64,000 nt of DNA. Origin: Rhabdochlamydiaceae bacterium. Lineage in GTDB: Bacteria; Chlamydiota; Chlamydiia; Chlamydiales; Rhabdochlamydiaceae. The stretch's first letter is position 1. Each line of letters begins with the position of its first letter. A program made the position numbers and the translations under genes. The stretch covers positions 32,001 through 96,000 of the forward strand of contig JAJREF010000005.1 in the NCBI GenBank assembly GCA_047459655.1, read 5' to 3'. Below the pieces are notes generated by a model. The model ran no database searches and was not told where the DNA came from. It saw nothing but the letters and a program-made list of their open reading frames with translations. Positions 4,476 to 64,000 of the stretch are shown in pieces.

Positions 4476-7027
4476 ATGAAAAAAGCTTTAATCATTGTTG
4501 AGTCTCCTTCAAAAATCAAAACTTTAAAAAAGTTTTTAGGACCACAGTACCATGTTGAATCGTCGGTTGGACATATCCGGGACCTCCCCAAAAAGGGCTT
4601 TGGAATCGATATTGAGAACAATTTCGAACCCACTTATGCCACCCTTGAAGATAAAAAAGAAGTCATACAAAAATTAAAAAAATCAGCCAAAGAATCTTCC
4701 ATTGTCTATCTAGCACCTGACCCCGATAGAGAAGGGGAAGCAATTGCATGGCATATTGCCTCTATCCTTCCTCCTCATACAAAATTCCAGCGTGTTACCT
4801 TCAACGAGATTACCAAAGAAGCGGTTTTATCCGCTCTTGAACATCCACGTAGCATCGATCAGGGACTCGTCGATGCGCAACAAGCAAGACGCCTTCTGGA
4901 TAGAATTGTAGGCTATAAGATCTCCCCTATTCTTACACGCAGAGTGCAAGGATCAAGAGATGGAGGCCTATCCGCAGGGCGGGTCCAATCGGTAGCCTTA
5001 AAACTTGTCGTTGACAGGGAAAAGGAGATCGATGCCTTTACTCCTGTTGAATATTGGAATATCTTCTCTCAGCTGATAGGTAATAAAAACGAAAAGTCAT
5101 TCACAGCTACTCTCTTTTCTGTAGGCGGCAAAAAAATAGAAAAAGAGCCTATCGAAGGAAAAGATGTCTTCCTGATTCCGAATGAAAAAGTAGCAACTGA
5201 CCTAGTTGCAAAACTAAAAAGTGCTATCTATAAAGTAGATACCGTCGATAAAAGAAAAAAAGAGAAACCCTGTTGCGCCCTTTATCACGTCTACACTCCA
5301 ACAAGAGGCAAGCCGCCACTTTGGATTTTCAGCTGTAAGAACAATGCGCGCTGCGCAAGATCTCTATGAAGGTATAGATTTTGGCCAAGACGGCGCAGAA
5401 GGCCTCATTACCTATATGCGTACAGACTCTGTCCGCATTGCTCCTGAAGCAATGACAGGGCTCAGAAAATACATCCTAAAGGAATATGGCCCTAACTTTC
5501 TACCTGAAGAACCCAAACAATATAGCACAAAAAAAAGCGCCCAAGATGCTCACGAAGCCATCCGTCCGACAAGCCTCAGCAGGCCTCCTGATGCCATTAA
5601 AAACTATCTGACACCTGATCAATTTAAACTCTATACCCTCATTTGGCGCCGTTTTGTTGCCTCTCAAATGAATCCTGCGATTTATGACACCGTTTCTTGC
5701 GACATTGTCACTGACAAAAACATGTTGCTAAGAGCCTCTGGCTCAGTCATCAAATTCTCTGGGTTCTTAGCTGTGTATGAAGAGAAACAAGACAGAGAAG
5801 GCGCTCAAGAAAAAGAAGAAGATGAAAGCAAAATTCTTCCTCCTCTTGCTCCAGGACAAGTCCTCTCTCTTTTAAAAGTTACTCCTGAACAATCGTTTAC
5901 AAAACCACCTCCACGCTTTACAGAAGCCTCCCTTGTAAAAGAACTTGAAAAGTCTGGCATTGGTAGACCTTCAACCTTTGCTTCTATTATGCAGAAAATT
6001 CAAAGTAGAGACTACACCGTTAAAGAAAAAGGAACACTGCGGCCCACAGAACTAGGAAAAGTGATTGCCAAAATGCTAGAAGATAGCTTCAAGCTAATCA
6101 TGGACATCGGCTTCACAGCCACCATGGAAGATAACCTGGAGCTCATCGCTGAAAATAAACTCCCCTGGAAAGAGCTAATTTCAGAGTTTTGGAAAGAATT
6201 CATCCCCACTGTTCAAATTGCTGAAAAAGAAGCCTTTGTTCCTAAAGTTCTTACAGAATTAGACTGCCCGCAGTGTAAACACAAACTCCAAAAAATCTGG
6301 TCTCGTAGATAAATATTTCTACGGATGCTCTAATTATCCAGAGTGTAAGTACACAACCTCGATGGATGCGTTGGACTTTAAAAAAGAAGACTACGCCCCT
6401 AATTTTGATTGGGATCAACCCTGCCCCAAATGCAGCGGTCCCATGCAACTACGCTTCGGAAGATTTGGTGCTTTCCTTGGATGCACAAAATACCCTGAAT
6501 GCAAAGGGATCGTGAACATCTCCAAAAAGGATGACGTCTTAATGGAAGATCTACCCCCATGCCCAGCTATTGGCTGTGATGGGAAGCTTGCTCAAAGGCG
6601 CTCTCGCTTTGGAAAACCTTTTTTCTCCTGTTCCAACTACCCCGATTGCGATGTCATCGTCTCAGACCTCGAAGACCTTCCCAATAAATACATCGATCAT
6701 CCTAAAACACCTTACGTCAAAAAAAGTAAATTTGGGAAAAAAGAAGATAAAGAAAAACCATCCAAAGAAAAGAAAAAGAAAAAATCGACCAGAGTCCAGC
6801 CTGCCTATAAGCTCTCCAAGGACCTCCAAGCCATTGTAGGCGCAGCCTCCCTTTCCCGTCCCGAAGTCACAAAAAAAGTCTGGGAATACATCAAAGCCAA
6901 CAAGCTGCAAGATCCTAAACATAAAAGACTCATCATCCCCGATGCCAAGTTAGCCAAAATCTTTGGCAACAACAAGCCCCTCGACATGATGCAACTAGCC
7001 CGTGTTTTAAATAAACACATCGACTAG
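4476..7027 (+). CDS. topA: DNA topoisomerase I with zinc ribbons and C-terminal SWIB domain (frameshifts near 5260 and 6310)
   Basis: IVESPSK, SVGHIRDLP, DPDREGEAI, SAGRVQS, GLITYMRTDS, AHEAIRP, C4 zinc ribbons, LSRPEVTKKVWEYIKANKLQDP (SWIB). Confidence 0.95.
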
Positions 7028-7030
7028 ATC

Positions 7031-7126
7031 TCATAAAAATGACGATTTTGTCATTTTTTATGGCAAAAAAGTGACAGAATTGTCACTTTTTGTTAAGATA
7101 AAGTGACGGGATTGTCATTAATTGGT
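7031..7126. promoter_or_regulatory. Three TGAC-N6-GTCA palindromes at exact 32-bp period
   Basis: TGAC starts at 7040, 7072 and 7104; the first two have A-tract/T-tract arms; the array ends just before the ATG at 7132. Confidence 0.65.
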
Positions 7127-7131
7127 GGGCT

Positions 7132-8527
7132 ATGCAGCGAAAATTGATGGAAAGGCTAGTTAAATGGAAGGAAGAAAAAGGTCGTAAACCTTTGCTAATA
7201 AAGGGCGTACGCCAAGTTGGGGAAAACCCACCTCCTTAAAGAGTTTGGGGAACACCACTTCTCTCAATGCCATTATTTTAATTTTGAAAAAGAACCTTCT
7301 CTAGCCAAGCTCTTTGAACTCAATCTTGATCCCAAGAGAATCCTCGACGAACTAACCTTCCATGCCAATCGTCCTATCCACATCGGAAAGGATCTTGTCA
7401 TTTTCGATGAAATCCAAGAAATTCCAAAAGCGCTAACGAGCTTAAAGTATTTCCAAGAAGAATGCCCTGAATTGCATCTATGTGGAGCGGGGTCGCTTTT
7501 AGGCCTCCATCTTAACTCTAGCTCTTTTCCTGTAGGGAAGGTGTCTTTTGAAACCCTGAGACCCATGTCTTTTGAAGAGTTCCTCATGGCCAGCAACGAT
7601 AAAGCTCTATCTCTACTCCAAAAGCTGACTGCAAAAGATGCGATTTCAGAGCTTCAACATGCCCATTTATGGCAGCAGCTAAAACACTATTTTATTGTAG
7701 GAGGCCTACCCGAAGCAGTGGCCACATATTGTGAACATAAAGAAACCCTTTTTGAAGCTTTTACACGCGTCAGAAAAAAACAGGATGACCTTCTTAAGTC
7801 TTATTATGCAGACATCGCTAAGCATGCTGGGAAGGTAAACGCTATGCATATTGATAGAATATTTCAATCTGTTCCTATGCAACTTAGCCAGACTCAGAAT
7901 GAATCGATTACACGCTTTAAATTTAAAGGGGTCGTCCCAGGTGTAACGCATTATGACAGGCTTGCTGGAGCAATTGATTGGCTAGAAGCAGCAGGCCTAG
8001 TGATTAAAATTCATATCGTTAATAAGGGGCTCCTTCCTTTTAAAGCTTACGGGAAAGAAAACTGCTTTAAACTACTGCTCTTTGATATTGGCGTTCTTGG
8101 AAGCATGAGCGACCTTGCTCCCAAAACTATTTTAGATGCTGAATACGGAAGCTTCAAAGGCTATTTTGCGGAAAACTTCGTAGCAGAAGAGCTGCTTGCC
8201 CATGGAAGAGAAAATCTATTCAGCTGGCAAGAAAATCTTGCAGAAATAGAATTTTTATTAGAAGTCACAGGAGAACCAATTCCTATCGAAGTTAAGTCAG
8301 GCTTAAATACCAAAGCAAAAAGCTTAAGAATCTTCTTGGAAAAATATAAATCACCTTACGGCGTTATTTTTAGCGGCCAGCCTTTACATACTCGCTCGAA
8401 TATTCATCACTATCCACTATATCTAGCTGGGAAGGTCCCTCTTTCTTCAGCAATTGCGAATGAACCAAGCTTGATTCGTAAAAAAGCGCACACATTATTT
8501 GATAGCTATATCGGAAATAATTTTTAA
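7132..8527 (+). CDS. AAA_14 ATPase with DUF4143 / PD-(D/E)XK-like C-terminal domain (frameshift at the GGGG run near 7220)
   Basis: MQRKLMERLVKWKEEKGRKPLLIKGVRQVG|KT (Walker A), IFDEIQ (Walker B), GGLPEAV, EIEF...PIEVKSG. Confidence 0.85.
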
Positions 8528-21960: not shown

Positions 21961-22196
21961 AGCGTTTTAGAATTTTTTACCCTCGCTCCAAGTTTTGGTT
22001 AATCTTTTGGCTTTTAGTGTGGCTTCCTATTGGACTTGTATTGCTATTAAAGAATGTCAAGTTAGTCACTCATGATCGAACATTGCGGCTTGCCTACCAT
22101 GGTTCTTATTTCTGGCTTTACTTCTGGTCAGTGGCGTGTTTCCCTGTGATGGTGCTACTGTTTCTATTTAATGGATCATTTGTTAAAAAAATGTAA
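21951..22196 (+). CDS. Small two-TM membrane protein
   Basis: 81 aa with internally repeated FWLIFW / FWLYFW hydrophobic halves; overlaps the GT9 stop. Confidence 0.6.
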   Translation: MGVERFRIFYPRSKFWLIFWLLVWLPIGLVLLLKNVKLVTHDRTLRLAYHGSYFWLYFWSVACFPVMVLLFLFNGSFVKKM

Positions 22197-22252
22197 CCTT
22201 CTAAACAATTGTGATATCGAGACCTTTTAATAATCCTACGACTTCCGGAAAG

Positions 22253-22413
22253 AGACCTCTGCATAACTCTGGTGAAACGAAAAAATCGAAGATTTTTTTG
22301 CAGATTTTTGTTTTTACATCGAAGACATACTCTAGAGAGTAGGCGAGATGTGAAAATAAACATCTGCAGAAAAAGCACGATTTGAGCGATTTACCAGAGT
22401 TATGCAGAGGTCT
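22253..22413. mobile_element. Palindromic element family A (RPE-like), copy 1, with 7-bp TSD CGGAAAG
   Basis: AGACCTCTGCATAACTCTGGT ... ACCAGAGTTATGCAGAGGTCT; CGGAAAG at 22246-22252 and 22414-22420. Confidence 0.9.
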
Positions 22414-22559
22414 CGGAAAGGAAAATTTCGCTTTTACAAGTTTATTTGTTGCCGGATCAATAGCGTAGTGCCTAGCTGTAGAAAAATCTGCTTTGCAGAG
22501 ATCACAGTTGTGGAATGTGGTTCCTGAGAAATCAACCTGGCTAAAATCTGCATTCTTAA

Positions 22560-22721
22560 GGAACCTCTGGACAAGTGCTTTGTCGGAGATTGCTGATCAA
22601 TTTTTCGAAGACGACGATTTTGGAGAACGCAGCTAACATGCAGAATGTTAGCGAGTTCGAAAAATCTAGTATTCGCAAAAATTGGCGGCAAGATTCGGCA
22701 AATGACTTGTCCAGAGGTTCC
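22560..22721. mobile_element. Palindromic MITE family B, copy 1, with TTAA TSD
   Basis: GGAACCTCTGGACAAGT ... ACTTGTCCAGAGGTTCC; central GCTAACAT-N5-ATGTTAGC. Confidence 0.9.
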
Positions 22722-22969
22722 TTAAGGCAGGTATTTGTAAAATAGTTCTCTCTTGGCTGACTGCTAGTGAAAGCTGTATTCTTCATATCGAGATCTGAGA
22801 AGTTGCAGCTCTGAAATGTACAGTTTGTAAAAGAGGCGCCATCAAATGATTTTTCTGAGAAATTTTCCGATTGGAACGTTTTTTGTTCTGTAGACTCTTT
22901 CATTATACCTGTTGCGCTGTTAATAAAAAATTTAATTCCAGGAACCGTGTAATTAAGAACTTGCCACCC

Positions 22970-43582: not shown

Positions 43583-43607
43583 TTGAATCAACTTTCTGAA
43601 TCACTCC

Positions 43608-45073
43608 TGTCAACGCAAAATAGAAATGTCCGCTTTTCTCCAATTTAGAAATGTCCTCTTTGGATGTTCTGATCTTCATTGGACTTGTCCGTTTTTTATC
43701 TAAAATACCCATTTTCAAAAGCTCTTCTCTTATCTCCAAGGGTGACTCCTTGAAGGTTTTTGAGGTTTTTTGTTTATCCAATTAAGTGCTAAATCTATTT
43801 CTTTGGACATCACAATTTTCCCTTGCGGTTCTTCCCCATATATCTTGTATTTTAACTCCTTGCCCTTATACAGCACTCTTACCCGTCCATTGAGATCTTC
43901 TAGAAGCATGACTTTTGCTTTCCTTAGAGTGTATGATGATCTTTCACTATCGATCTGATAAAGACTGTTTTTGTATTGGAAGCTTAAGTTTTTAGAGAGA
44001 CATCGGATTTCCTGGTAACTGAAAATCTCTTCTAAGTTCTCTTCTGGTTTTAAAGCTCGATGAGCATCTTCTGCGTTTCTAGGAGCTACGGCAAATTTTT
44101 TGTTATACTTCTCTATGAACTCGGGAATCCATTCATTTGCCTTTTCAATAGTTGAAATATTTTTTTCTCTCATCTCCTTGACTAAACGATCTTGCAATGT
44201 TTGATTGGCTTTTTCAACTCTTCCTTTTGCCTGGGGTGTATTGGCACAAATGAGCTTGATATCGAGTTTTTTTAGGACTCTTCCAAACTCTGTCACTCCA
44301 TTACCAGATACAGCTTCTTTGTGGTTGACTCTAAAAACTCCATATTTATCGCTGTAGAAAGCAAGTGGTTTTCCACATCTCTTTAGATACCTTTTTGTCG
44401 CTTTAAAATAAGATTCTGTTGTTTCACCAAGAGAAAAAAACAGCTCGACAAGTCTACTAGTTGCATCATCAATGTATACTAAAAGGGTACACCTGGGTCC
44501 TCTATTTTCAAACCAGTCATGGGGAGATCCGTCTATTTGTACAAGATCTCCATACTGACTCCTTCTTGGTCTCATCGGGTGGATAACTGCCTTTTTAGCT
44601 TTTTTAGGAGACCAAATATTTTCTTCTATCATCCATTTCCTAAGCGTCTCTATAGACAATGTAAGCTTATGTTTTTCTTCTAACTTTTCTTGAGCTAACG
44701 TAGGGCCATAATCTGCATAATGAGCGGAAATCAGCTTTAGGACTTGTGATCTAAAAGCTTCTGTTAACCTGCGATTACTAGGCTGCCCTCTCTTTTTGGA
44801 AACTAAGCCAGCTTCTCCATGCAGTTCGTAAGCTTGTTTTAAACGTCTAACTTGTCTGGCTGTTATCCCCAGACGTTGTCCCACTTCTATCTGGGAAAAG
44901 CTTTTTCTTTTTAAATTGCGCATCATTTCAACTCTTTCTAATTCTCTTCTGCTCATAGTTATCAACTCCTTCACTCTCACCTCCTTTCAAAAACAAATTT
45001 GAATGAGGTCAGTATCTTCAAAAGAGGACATTTCTATTTAGCAGAAAGAGGACATTATCATTTTGGGCTAACA
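43608..45073 (-). mobile_element. IS1202-family (ISNCY) insertion sequence with 16-bp TSD
   Basis: TGT...ACA ends with doubled AATGTCC subterminal sites; CTTTCTGAATCACTCC at 43592-43607 and 45074-45089. Confidence 0.92.
43730..44980 (-). CDS. DDE transposase (IS1202/ISNCY)
   Basis: HTH, QIDGSPHDWF, IDDATS, YSDK, PQAKGRVEK.NQTLQDRL, HPWR. Confidence 0.95.
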   Translation of the reverse strand: MRVKELITMSRRELERVEMMRNLKRKSFSQIEVGQRLGITARQVRRLKQAYELHGEAGLVSKKRGQPSNRRLTEAFRSQVLKLISAHYADYGPTLAQEKLEEKHKLTLSIETLRKWMIEENIWSPKKAKKAVIHPMRPRRSQYGDLVQIDGSPHDWFENRGPRCTLLVYIDDATSRLVELFFSLGETTESYFKATKRYLKRCGKPLAFYSDKYGVFRVNHKEAVSGNGVTEFGRVLKKLDIKLICANTPQAKGRVEKANQTLQDRLVKEMREKNISTIEKANEWIPEFIEKYNKKFAVAPRNAEDAHRALKPEENLEEIFSYQEIRCLSKNLSFQYKNSLYQIDSERSSYTLRKAKVMLLEDLNGRVRVLYKGKELKYKIYGEEPQGKIVMSKEIDLALNWINKKPQKPSRSHPWR

Positions 45074-45089
45074 CTTTCTGAATCACTCC

Positions 45090-61087: not shown

Positions 61088-61489
61088 CTACATCTTCTTT
61101 TGGCTGTTCATCAGAGAAACTGTCATCATCCTGGAAAGGCTTGCTTCCTTTTTGGGAACTTTACAGGCTCTAGCCCCACCGCCTGACATTGCTTGTGCAA
61201 GGCCACCAGGAGAGACATTGCTACATGTTGAAAAACTTTCTCCATCCATGCAGTACCATTGGACAGTGTAGGGCGTGCGCGACTGGTTCGGCGCCCCTAC
61301 CCCTGAATTGTAATCATTCCACGACATCGTTTGACGAGGATTGACGACCACCTCTCCTAAAGAAGCGCCATCAGAAGCCTGAACAATAGCTTGCAGCTTA
61401 TATGTTGAATCATTCACAAGGCGGACGCTTCCTGCATGAGCTAACTGACAACACAACAGAGCGATTATAAAACTTATACTTTTCGTCAT
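61088..61489 (-). CDS. Secreted hypothetical protein
   Basis: Signal peptide ending AHA; Cys-containing beta-rich body. Confidence 0.6.
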   Translation of the reverse strand: MTKSISFIIALLCCQLAHAGSVRLVNDSTYKLQAIVQASDGASLGEVVVNPRQTMSWNDYNSGVGAPNQSRTPYTVQWYCMDGESFSTCSNVSPGGLAQAMSGGGARACKVPKKEASLSRMMTVSLMNSQKKM

Positions 61490-63234
61490 TTCTTATCTTT
61501 AACAATAAATGCCCATTTAAAGTCAACACTCCCTGTCGTAGAAACAGCGACATCTCTCACTCTTTCACTTGCTAAATAGAGCATCGTATAATGGAATAAG
61601 GGAATGATGGCCATCTCATCGATTAAGAGAGATTCACTCTCTTTTAAAACTTTTTTGCGCGCGTCAAAATCAGACAGAGAGAGCGCCTGATTGAGGAGTT
61701 CTTCATATTTAGGATTTTCCCACGATGTGTGGTTGGATCCTACTTTCTTATTTTTAAAAATTTCTAAAAAATTAAGAGGGTCGTTGAAATCAGCTGTCCA
61801 AGATCCAATAGCTATCTGAAAATCTTTTTTTGTCAGACGATCATAAAAAGTTTTCCGCTCCATCGGCTCAATTTTAACATCGACACCTAGAGTAGATGTC
61901 CACTGCGCTTGCACTGCTTGCGCAATCAGGTTGTTTCTCTCGCTTGTAATGTAGAGCAGCACAATACAAGGAAGGTCTTGGAGCGACAACCCTTGTTCTT
62001 TTAAAGCTTGGTTAAAACAGCGTTTAGCTGTTTCAACATCTCCATCCTTGAAATAGGGAGCATCTTGCAGCCCCATCGCTGTTGGAACAAGGCCTGTTGC
62101 CGCAATTTGTTTCCCCTGCAGCACATGGTCGATGATTTCTTGTCGGTTGATAGATAAACCAAAAGCTTTCCGCATCAAAGGATGGTTAAAAGGGGCTTTG
62201 TTTGTGTTTGTATTGAAAAAATAAGTCGCTAAAAAGGGTTTGGTATGAAACTCTTTTCGCTGCCTGAGCTGAGCAATCGCATCGAGAGGAAGCACAGAGA
62301 GGGGAGATCCTGCCCAATCAAGCTCTTTTTTTTCATACATCTTAAATTCTGTATCTTCACTGACCATGACTAGCTGTATCCCATCTAATTGAACATGCGG
62401 GGCATCCCAATAGTGGCCATTCTTAACAACTTCAAAACAATCAGAATGCTTCCATTCTTTCGGTAGGAAAGGACCGTTACAAATGTAGGTTGCTGCCTCA
62501 TCTGCCCAATGGGAGTTCAGCTCATCTGTTTTTTGATGAATAGGAAAATAGATGGGAAGCGCTGTTAATTCTAAAAAGTAGTGCGTGGGTCTTTCTAGTT
62601 CAACTTGTAAAGTTTTTGCATCGAGCACCTGTACCCCAAGATCGTCTACAGGTAGCTGCCCTTTCTTGATCAGTTCGGCATTTTTAATAGGGTATAGCTG
62701 AAAAGCTCTATCAGAAGGGAAGCTAGGACTTAGAGATTTTTTCCAGGCGTATGCAAAATCATCCGCTGTTACACGCTCCCCATTACTCCATTTGCAATCT
62801 CTTAAATGAAACGTGTACATCTTTCCATCAGAGGAGATCTCTAATCTTTCTGCAACAGCTAACTGAGGTTGATCTTTCGGATCCATGCGCGTTAATCCAT
62901 CAAAACACATCTGGACAACTGTCTGTGATTGGAGATCTTTTGCTTTTCTTGGGTCTAATGTTTGAGGCTCGCCCCCAATATTTACCTTAAGCTGCTTCCC
63001 TTTTTGGGGTTGACAGCCTGTGGCTAAAAGAAGTACAAGGAAAACCCATGTGGTATATACTGAGAGACCTCTGCGTAACTTTAGTGAAGTGAAAAAATCG
63101 AAGATTTTTGTTTTTATATCGAAGACATACTCTAGAGAGTAGGCAAGATGTGAAAATAAACATCTGCAGAAAAAGCACGATTCGAGCGATTTACCAGAGT
63201 TATGAAGAGGTCTCTCTAAGAATGTTTTTTTCAT
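61486..63234 (-). CDS. oppA: Oligopeptide ABC transporter substrate-binding lipoprotein
   Basis: LLLATGC lipobox, EPQTLDP, YTFHLR..KWSNG..VTADDF, NGPF, WTADFNDP; family A element in-frame in the N-terminus. Confidence 0.92.
   Translation of the reverse strand: MKKTFLERPLHNSGKSLESCFFCRCLFSHLAYSLEYVFDIKTKIFDFFTSLKLRRGLSVYTTWVFLVLLLATGCQPQKGKQLKVNIGGEPQTLDPRKAKDLQSQTVVQMCFDGLTRMDPKDQPQLAVAERLEISSDGKMYTFHLRDCKWSNGERVTADDFAYAWKKSLSPSFPSDRAFQLYPIKNAELIKKGQLPVDDLGVQVLDAKTLQVELERPTHYFLELTALPIYFPIHQKTDELNSHWADEAATYICNGPFLPKEWKHSDCFEVVKNGHYWDAPHVQLDGIQLVMVSEDTEFKMYEKKELDWAGSPLSVLPLDAIAQLRQRKEFHTKPFLATYFFNTNTNKAPFNHPLMRKAFGLSINRQEIIDHVLQGKQIAATGLVPTAMGLQDAPYFKDGDVETAKRCFNQALKEQGLSLQDLPCIVLLYITSERNNLIAQAVQAQWTSTLGVDVKIEPMERKTFYDRLTKKDFQIAIGSWTADFNDPLNFLEIFKNKKVGSNHTSWENPKYEELLNQALSLSDFDARKKVLKESESLLIDEMAIIPLFHYTMLYLASERVRDVAVSTTGSVDFKWAFIVKDKK
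63065..63213. mobile_element. Palindromic element family A (RPE-like), copy 2, inside oppA
   Basis: Near-identical to 22253..22413 but with a 12-bp deletion. Confidence 0.9.
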
Positions 63235-63240
63235 TTCCCT

Positions 63241-63270
63241 AATTTAGACAGGTAAGGGGGTTTTCGTCAA
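63241..63270 (-). promoter_or_regulatory. Possible sigma70-type promoter of oppA
   Basis: Minus strand TTGACG-18 bp-TAAATT, followed by AGGGAA and the ATG at 63234. Confidence 0.35.
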
Positions 63271-63271
63271 G

Positions 63272-63305
63272 TAGACCTCAGAACCTTAATTACGTAAGAG
63301 GTCTA
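63272..63305. repeat. Mini element retaining only family-A-like ends
   Basis: TAGACCTC-N18-GAGGTCTA immediately before the ATG at 63306. Confidence 0.55.
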
Positions 63306-64000
63306 ATGCCTTTCGCAACAACCATCTCTCCAGCTCCCTTGCTAAATACTCCTAAACTTATTTTCGAGCTTTCGAAAGATTCTCAAGATCGTTTTATGGA
63401 ATTAGAAACCGTGATTTTCACTTACGTCTTGCTAGAGCTCATCGAACAAAAAACAGAGCAGGTGTGGGAAGTAAAAACAAAAGAATACCCCTCTTCCTCT
63501 AAGCTATACATCGATCAACAATTTTTTCAGCCTATTTCCTTGCCCATAGAAAGAACGATTGAACTACCCTCTCTTGAAGAGATCTTAGCCAACATGAAAA
63601 AATTAGAAGGGCTTCGCTATTTTTGGGGTGGAGCCTATCCTTATGGCATTCCCAACATTTTAAAATTCTATCCCCACATCTCTGAAAGACCTGATTTGGC
63701 TGATCTCATTTGCCAGGGGGTCGATTGCTCAGGGCTTCTTTTTTTTGCTACCAATGGATGGACTCCCCGTAACACCACTGAGCTCACGCGTTTTGGCACA
63801 AACATCTTCGATCCTTCCCTGCCTTTAGATGAGTTAAAGCTAGAGCCTCTTGATATCATTGTATGGCAAGGGCACGTCCTGATCGCCGTTTCCCCCGACA
63901 CTCTCATTGAAAGCAGAATTGATAAAGGCGTTTGCTTCTCTCCACTAAAAACCCGTTTCCCCGAAGTACAAAAAATTGCTGCAGATCAAAAAAAGAACTC
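63306..64000 (+). CDS. NlpC/P60 family peptidase (partial; runs off window end)
   Basis: Read by eye: YFWGG, GVDCSGLL, TPRNT, IVWQGHVLI. Confidence 0.85.
   Translation, partial: MPFATTISPAPLLNTPKLIFELSKDSQDRFMELETVIFTYVLLELIEQKTEQVWEVKTKEYPSSSKLYIDQQFFQPISLPIERTIELPSLEEILANMKKLEGLRYFWGGAYPYGIPNILKFYPHISERPDLADLICQGVDCSGLLFFATNGWTPRNTTELTRFGTNIFDPSLPLDELKLEPLDIIVWQGHVLIAVSPDTLIESRIDKGVCFSPLKTRFPEVQKIAADQKKN

Follow-up and report, generated by a model that had tools for sequence, protein, structure and literature searches.

An IS5-type MITE lies in frame in the leader of an oppA-like lipoprotein gene that is likely still functional

Rickettsia palindromic elements (RPEs) were reportedly described by Ogata et al. 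in 2000 and 2002. In sections of later papers, they are presented as palindromic repeats that lie in frame in protein genes, with inserts kept in the protein at solvent-exposed sites (PMC10969869, PMC2229807, PMC3767692), and their target site duplication (TSD) is entered as "?" in one of these sections (PMC2229807). The Yersinia YPAL/RU-2 element is described as a MITE of 168 bp with a 56-aa frame (YPO1552), which helps to form the signal of a proposed new exported protein (PMC2759123, PMC2229807). Autotransporters with long Sec signal sequences are exported (PMC2805444), and about 90% of bacterial MITEs are intergenic (PMC11602168).

The gene analyzed here, an oppA-like gene carrying a MITE, belongs to the window (the whole 64,000-nt stretch of DNA that was analyzed), which is held by the genome G000. 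Taken alone, the oppA event adds one more RPE-like in-frame insertion to a kind already known: as in the RPE cases of those sections, a palindromic repeat of about 150 nt is fused in frame in a conserved gene of an intracellular-type bacterium, and the protein is apparently constrained. In contrast to RPEs, the family of the oppA MITE has a clear 5-bp TSD and IS5-type ends, and only 4 of the 14 full-length family copies are intragenic (3 of the 14 being in frame within genes). Moreover, the RPE inserts of these sections remain in the protein, whereas the leader in which the oppA insert sits is predicted to be cut off. The insert would work like an RPE insertion, by a likeness of architecture rather than by comparison with RPE sequences, and we did not file the element as an RPE because its host appears chlamydial, not Rickettsia. 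Compared to YPAL/RU-2, which contributes to a new signal, the oppA MITE interrupts the signal of a long-established, conserved lipoprotein for which an empty allele is known. As in autotransporters, an extended N-terminal part ahead of a normal hydrophobic core would be compatible with Sec export; however, the autotransporter extensions are described as organised, functionally distinct domains, whereas that of oppA is mobile-element sequence in a signal peptidase II leader.

The oppA-like open reading frame encodes 582 aa and is open throughout, 52 inserted residues included. Its product matched SBP_bac_5 (PF00496) with an E-value of 1e-77 (262 bits, for a cut-off of 32.4), the most similar solved structure in a PDB search was an OppA (E = 6.5e-132), and the top NCBIfam profile was OppA PRK15104, with a score under its cut-off. 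By these matches the gene is an oppA-like gene for a family-5 solute-binding lipoprotein. Two more oppA paralogs were present in G000, so the need for the insert-carrying copy is not proven. The features of the locus, and a sister copy of the element, are as follows.

61486..63234, minus strand: oppA-like gene (PF00496, PRK15104 below cut-off, orthologs 89% and 80% identical).
63220..63234, minus strand: native start codon and first five codons, with the basic n-region, retained 5' of the insert (ortholog comparison, empty-allele protein P0003).
63215..63219, minus strand: upstream TSD copy, TTAGA, 5 bp (the family TSD is 5 bp).
63064..63214, minus strand: MITE of 151 nt with terminal inverted repeats of about 22 nt, read in a stop-free frame (copy comparison, empty site in X4).
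63059..63063, minus strand: downstream TSD copy, TCAGT (the family TSD is 5 bp).
63013..63058, minus strand: original hydrophobic region and lipobox up to Cys74, codon 63013-63015 (hydropathy, orthologs).
63241..63270, minus strand: sigma-70-type promoter-like site, TTGACG, 18 nt, TAAATT (1 found for 0.8 expected by chance).
63271..63305, no strand assigned: 35-nt hairpin left over from a second MITE family (not present at the G002 ortholog).
22252..22414, minus strand: sister copy of the oppA MITE, 163 nt, with a perfect 5-bp TSD, in a pentapeptide-repeat gene.

The locus was compared with two genomes of the same genus (G001 and G002) and with public sequencing runs (X1 to X4); the runs covering at least half of the window were lake and freshwater metagenomes. 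No RNA run was listed among those that cover it, a result that is neutral as to expression. X1 was not counted among the independent carriers, because the window is nearly the same in sequence and may derive from this run. The X4 contig skipped exactly 156 nt at 63059-63216, and the empty-allele protein assigned to it, P0003, which comes from a contig of equal length, has 530 aa, starts with MKKTLLVYTTW and carries its lipobox cysteine at position 22. The two alleles encode proteins that are 97% identical apart from one 52-residue insert; G000 and X4 differed by 12 amino-acid changes, and by 99 bases over 61404-63059. Among the same-genus genomes, G002 and G001 have orthologs with ordinary short lipoprotein signals; the identities of the orthologs to the G000 gene product are 89% and 80%. 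The first-pass annotation of this DNA had proposed about 50 extra residues in a fully open frame and had called for an empty site to be sought in relatives, and the comparison bears it out on these points. It had also predicted that removal of the element would restore a signal of about 22 aa; the length was right, as Cys22 of P0003 indicates, and the residues were not (L-V-Y-T-T-W instead of F-S-V-Y).

The X2 contig, from another study (4611 nt), spans 61400-63589 with 52 differences, no gaps and the insert present, and the right junction of the insert is identical in X3. These independent, gap-free carriers matter because G000 is indel-rich: apparent frameshifts split 263 of 698 orthologs (38%) in this genome vs 3 of 686 in G002. 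An assembly artefact was ruled out by the gap-free insert in contigs from other studies. Elsewhere in the window, topA with a C-terminal SWIB domain (4476-7027) is broken into three frames, for which assembly indels are the most likely cause, and G000 also encodes a GreA of 723 aa. Both features are hallmarks of Chlamydiota and point to an environmental chlamydia as the host.

The MITE in oppA, with ends GAGACC...GGTCTC, makes up a total insertion of 156 nt with one 5-bp TSD copy, i.e., 52 codons after codon 6. It is predicted to fold into a hairpin (z = -4.3, with none of 200 shuffles equally stable). Its family comprises 14 full-length and 8 partial copies in G000, and full copies were not found in the 30 related genomes searched. 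Eight of the 14 copies are 163 nt long (range 151-164 nt), the oppA copy being without 12 internal nt. Across the 14 copies, 16 to 22 of the 22 positions of the terminal inverted repeats form Watson-Crick pairs, and the oppA copy, with 18 of 22, is no outlier. A perfect 5-bp TSD flanks six of the 14 copies. In oppA the two TSD copies are alike at three of five bases, and both would be one change away from the TTAGT target that we infer from the L-V codons of the empty allele. The earlier statement that no clean TSD is visible is correct as to the letters; the TSD is nevertheless a degenerate (decayed) 5-bp duplication and is not missing.

One of the six frames is stop-free in eight of the 14 copies, intergenic ones included, and closed in the other six. 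The open frame is unremarkable because at least one also occurs in 15.6% of 5000 shuffled versions of a 163-nt copy, and the idea that the family is built to be coding is unsupported. The sister copy at 22252-22414 is in frame, 15-16 codons ahead of the stop of the pentapeptide-repeat gene (22118-22903). That gene is hit by two different MITEs, is shorter than its G002 ortholog and is probably a pseudogene.

Empty sites in relatives were seen for copies of the family, and the element encodes no transposase. Its 18-nt end recurs in other phyla, with at least 125 matches; flanks were available for 80 loci, and 19 of these have an exact 5-bp duplication. Three large elements bearing the same end were tested, and all three encode IS5 transposases above the NF033581 cut-off. 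We call the element an IS5-type MITE because the 18-nt end and the 5-bp duplication are common to IS5 elements, as also to 94-223-nt MITEs of other phyla; by these sequence features it is one. The exact 22-nt end gave no match in other genomes, and a transposase with the exact ends of the element was not found in G000, a genome 82% complete. The IS5 that G000 does possess (C3, about 6645-7830) has related but different ends, which match a 54-copy MITE family that it likely mobilises; its transposase frame appears interrupted near the 5' end. In a weak search involving longer proteins, the element peptide as a protein family matched one of four candidates, its own protein. A metagenome scan gave five loci with best segments 32-84% identical, and the one reaching the N-terminus aligned from residue 52.

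To evaluate the constraint on the insert-bearing gene, we compared the mature OppA of the two carriers G000 and X2. Of the differences, 29 were synonymous and 5 were non-synonymous (pN/pS 0.046, P = 3e-15). Polarised by hand with X4, the synonymous to non-synonymous counts were 13:2 on the G000 branch (P = 1e-7) and 16:3 on the X2 branch (P = 9e-9), among the differences listed (40 of 177, those of X2 being assumed complete over the gene, up to 63358). These values strongly argue for purifying selection on mature OppA along both carrier branches. The 582-codon frame is intact in both strains. In addition, the insert copy is not new, because G000 and X2 have in common two private substitutions, the 12-nt in-frame deletion and two TSD changes.

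The 533-bp tract 62793-63325, which includes the insert, has a history of its own. G000 and X2 differ there at one site among the differences listed, vs about 14 predicted from the rate of the 3' part, which holds 34 (P = 1.4e-5). Both flanks of the tract are divergent between the two strains, a pattern that is recombination-like or sweep-like. The insert-bearing 5' haplotype may have been recently exchanged between strains, and a part of the synonymous divergence may in that case predate the insert on one background.

Taken together, we consider it likely that oppA remains functional with the IS5-end element in frame after codon 6, by read-through of the element and removal of a 73-residue leader at the lipobox. 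An IS5-family transposase acting in trans would have inserted a 163-nt copy in a stop-free frame; with its 5-bp duplication, a fresh insertion of this family adds 168 nt, or 56 codons, and 12 nt would have been lost from the oppA copy afterwards. Translation would start at the native ATG, a start that we propose because the hairpin begins just past the initiation region, 20 nt after the A of the ATG. The predicted accessibility of the start region is barely altered by the hairpin (0.57 with it vs 0.52 without it, and 0.50 vs 0.47), so that initiation is likely unaffected and followed by read-through. The suggestion that the hairpin tunes translation or stability found no positive support in these values, nor in the pairing of the copy, which is ordinary for its family. 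The resulting precursor would carry a leader of 73 residues: the native basic start, the 52 foreign residues, which finish K-L-R-R-G-L-S, and the unchanged hydrophobic core and lipobox. The K-L-R-R patch from the element end would precede the original h-region, which would be recognised by Sec (its 11-residue hydropathy peak is 2.69). Sec, Lgt and signal peptidase II form the established lipoprotein pathway. Lgt would then lipidate Cys74, in the L-A-T-G-C lipobox that is identical in the OppA proteins of G000, X2, X4 and G002, and signal peptidase II would remove residues 1-73. With the leader discarded, mature OppA would match that of insert-free strains, and the insertion would be close to neutral. 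The insert also includes a Cys-rich patch of moderate hydrophobicity (11-residue peak 1.36), which could disturb targeting. That the insertion is tolerated through cleavage of the leader, as initially proposed, is the best reading of the empty site, the constraint and the unchanged h-region and lipobox; cleavage itself is predicted.

The first alternative to consider is that the insertion silenced or crippled oppA, through the hairpin on the message or through a long leader that is not exported, and that the gene has not yet decayed. The stability of a hairpin so close to the start, the existence of the paralogs, the broken appearance of other MITE-hit genes of G000 and a tract that appears to have become common to the strains only recently are all compatible with it. 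However, a crippled gene is hard to reconcile with strong purifying selection on both insert-carrying branches, with a frame kept intact in two strains and with a copy old enough to have accumulated shared changes and a deletion, and we consider it unlikely.

A second, quite unlikely alternative is that the insertion was selected, i.e., that it alters the level or the targeting of OppA, was fine-tuned and spreads through recombination among strains. Both private substitutions common to G000 and X2 (E to K and C to R) make the stretch encoded by the final 8 element codons, ahead of the h-region, more positively charged. About 2% of random changes add such charge (4e-4 when squared, a post hoc value for two substitutions), which is a post hoc hint of fine-tuning. 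The near-identity of the tract between strains that are otherwise 2.6% divergent also agrees with a selected insert. On the other hand, these are two substitutions only, picked after the fact, G-to-A transitions are common, neutral recombination also yields a shared tract, a close strain does without the insert, and the hairpin is neither clearly relaxed nor strengthened compared to the other 13 copies. Relaxation of the hairpin by selection was considered separately and is unsupported, the oppA copy having the second-weakest energy per base of the 14, inside the range.

Least probable, indeed very unlikely, is expression from a near-cognate start in the element, either the ATA of codon 40 or the ATC of codon 44 (both in frame), with a shorter leader and most of the element untranslated: a different MITE does appear to supply an internal ATG in the GT25-like gene described below, but the native ATG and the purine run 5' of it are intact and conserved in the orthologs, the ATA and ATC codons sit within the predicted hairpin, and the frame kept by the 12-nt deletion counts against an internal start because the frame matters only if it is read through. 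As had been noted for ATG between the element and the lipobox, codon 1 is the sole in-frame ATG, GTG or TTG among codons 1-74.

Upstream of oppA, the promoter-like site stops 6 nt 5' of the ATG and would give a very short mRNA leader. It is weak alone, given the chance expectation; a TTGAC is found at the same position in both same-genus orthologs. The 35-nt hairpin lies between the -35 box of oppA and the ATG of a divergent gene, and in X4, where the oppA site is empty, loose ends at 63279/63281 suggest a longer element there. The divergent gene (63306-64000, running on to G000:C5:96223) adjoins oppA in G002 too. Its D-C-S-G motif resembles that of NlpC/P60 peptidases, Pfam and PDB searches gave no match for it, and it could possibly form a peptidoglycan-recycling pair with oppA.

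We then analyzed the other MITE insertions of G000, which possesses about 190 MITE loci that fall into at least a dozen families. Flanks were compared with 75 contigs of G002 (1.62 Mb), and 66 loci were mapped on both sides. A gene reads away from the element on 114 sides, of which the nearest 63 were read by eye and 6 rechecked. At the DNA level, five of the six ambiguous 5' cases lay upstream of the start and one, in prfC, duplicates the ATG. We observed five MITE insertions at or after a start codon, four of them in signal-bearing genes, including three lipoproteins:

oppA, 63064-63214, minus strand: after codon 6, in frame, in a lipoprotein signal.
RND efflux adaptor lipoprotein gene, C1:313415-313587: oppA-MITE family, same open frame, with a TSD that includes the ATG.
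lptE, C3:66290-66453: oppA-MITE family in opposite orientation, in the signal-coding region, with the frame closed in the assembly.
GT25-like gene with a hydrophobic N-terminus, C3:24694-24887: 54-copy MITE family, three codons after the ATG.
prfC-like gene without a signal, C1:52150-52255: the MITE duplication repeats the start codon, the first frame closes and the second ATG is intact.

In the efflux adaptor gene, the first ATG overlaps the stop of the upstream gene and reads through in frame (+56 aa), and two sources give different lengths for the protein (412 and 356 aa). The lptE gene, which is normally essential, has no canonical in-frame start for its full signal in this assembly, and its closed frame may be an assembly indel. 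The native frame of the GT25-like gene ends one base ahead of an in-frame ATG within the element, which suggests possible re-initiation at that ATG. The prfC case, a name that we assume from the sequence of the gene, was added to the tally and counts against the signal-peptide pattern. For the efflux adaptor and GT25-like proteins, cluster look-ups returned no member from an independent sample.

Among 671 genes taken as a crude background, 200 have a hydrophobic N-terminus and 26 encode lipoproteins; on this basis, four signal-bearing genes of five gives P = 0.03 and three lipoproteins of five P = 5e-4. When oppA, the seed of the question, is excluded, these values become 0.08 and 0.009, respectively. 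The enrichment of copies in signal peptides that the first-pass annotation had asked about is thus seen in the raw count and is suggestive; it is also post hoc, small and, without oppA, marginal. It is a tentative and on balance doubtful idea that cleaved signal peptides, mainly lipoprotein leaders, would be a systematic safe haven for 5'-end MITEs, the element peptide being discarded by signal peptidases, and that the oppA copy would have used its own inverted repeat to rebuild a basic n-region and would have passed from strain to strain by recombination. The literature searches yielded no paper in which signal peptides are described as a preferred site of MITEs or palindromic elements; RPE insertions in leaders may already have been published.

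The pair of oppA alleles offers a natural test of how long and how foreign the n-region of a lipoprotein can be, and both alleles, which differ essentially by the leader insert, are available in public sequencing runs. If the enrichment holds across genomes, signal peptides would be a general hiding place for selfish DNA in conserved genes. These lipoproteins also carry a warning, as they will be cut short or wrongly labelled by programs that call genes or predict signal peptides.

On the 3' side, 44 of 122 sides overlap a projected gene end, 37 of them within the last 10 codons (uncurated), and many MITEs of G000 lie at the last codons of genes, replacing or extending the C-termini. The few deep MITE hits fall in genes that appear broken, for which assembly errors are possible. 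Finally, an insertion sequence of 1.47 kb with HTH and integrase-core matches is present in 10 copies, at 43607-45074 in the window and at 9 other loci, and is flanked by unusually long target duplications of about 13-16 bp.
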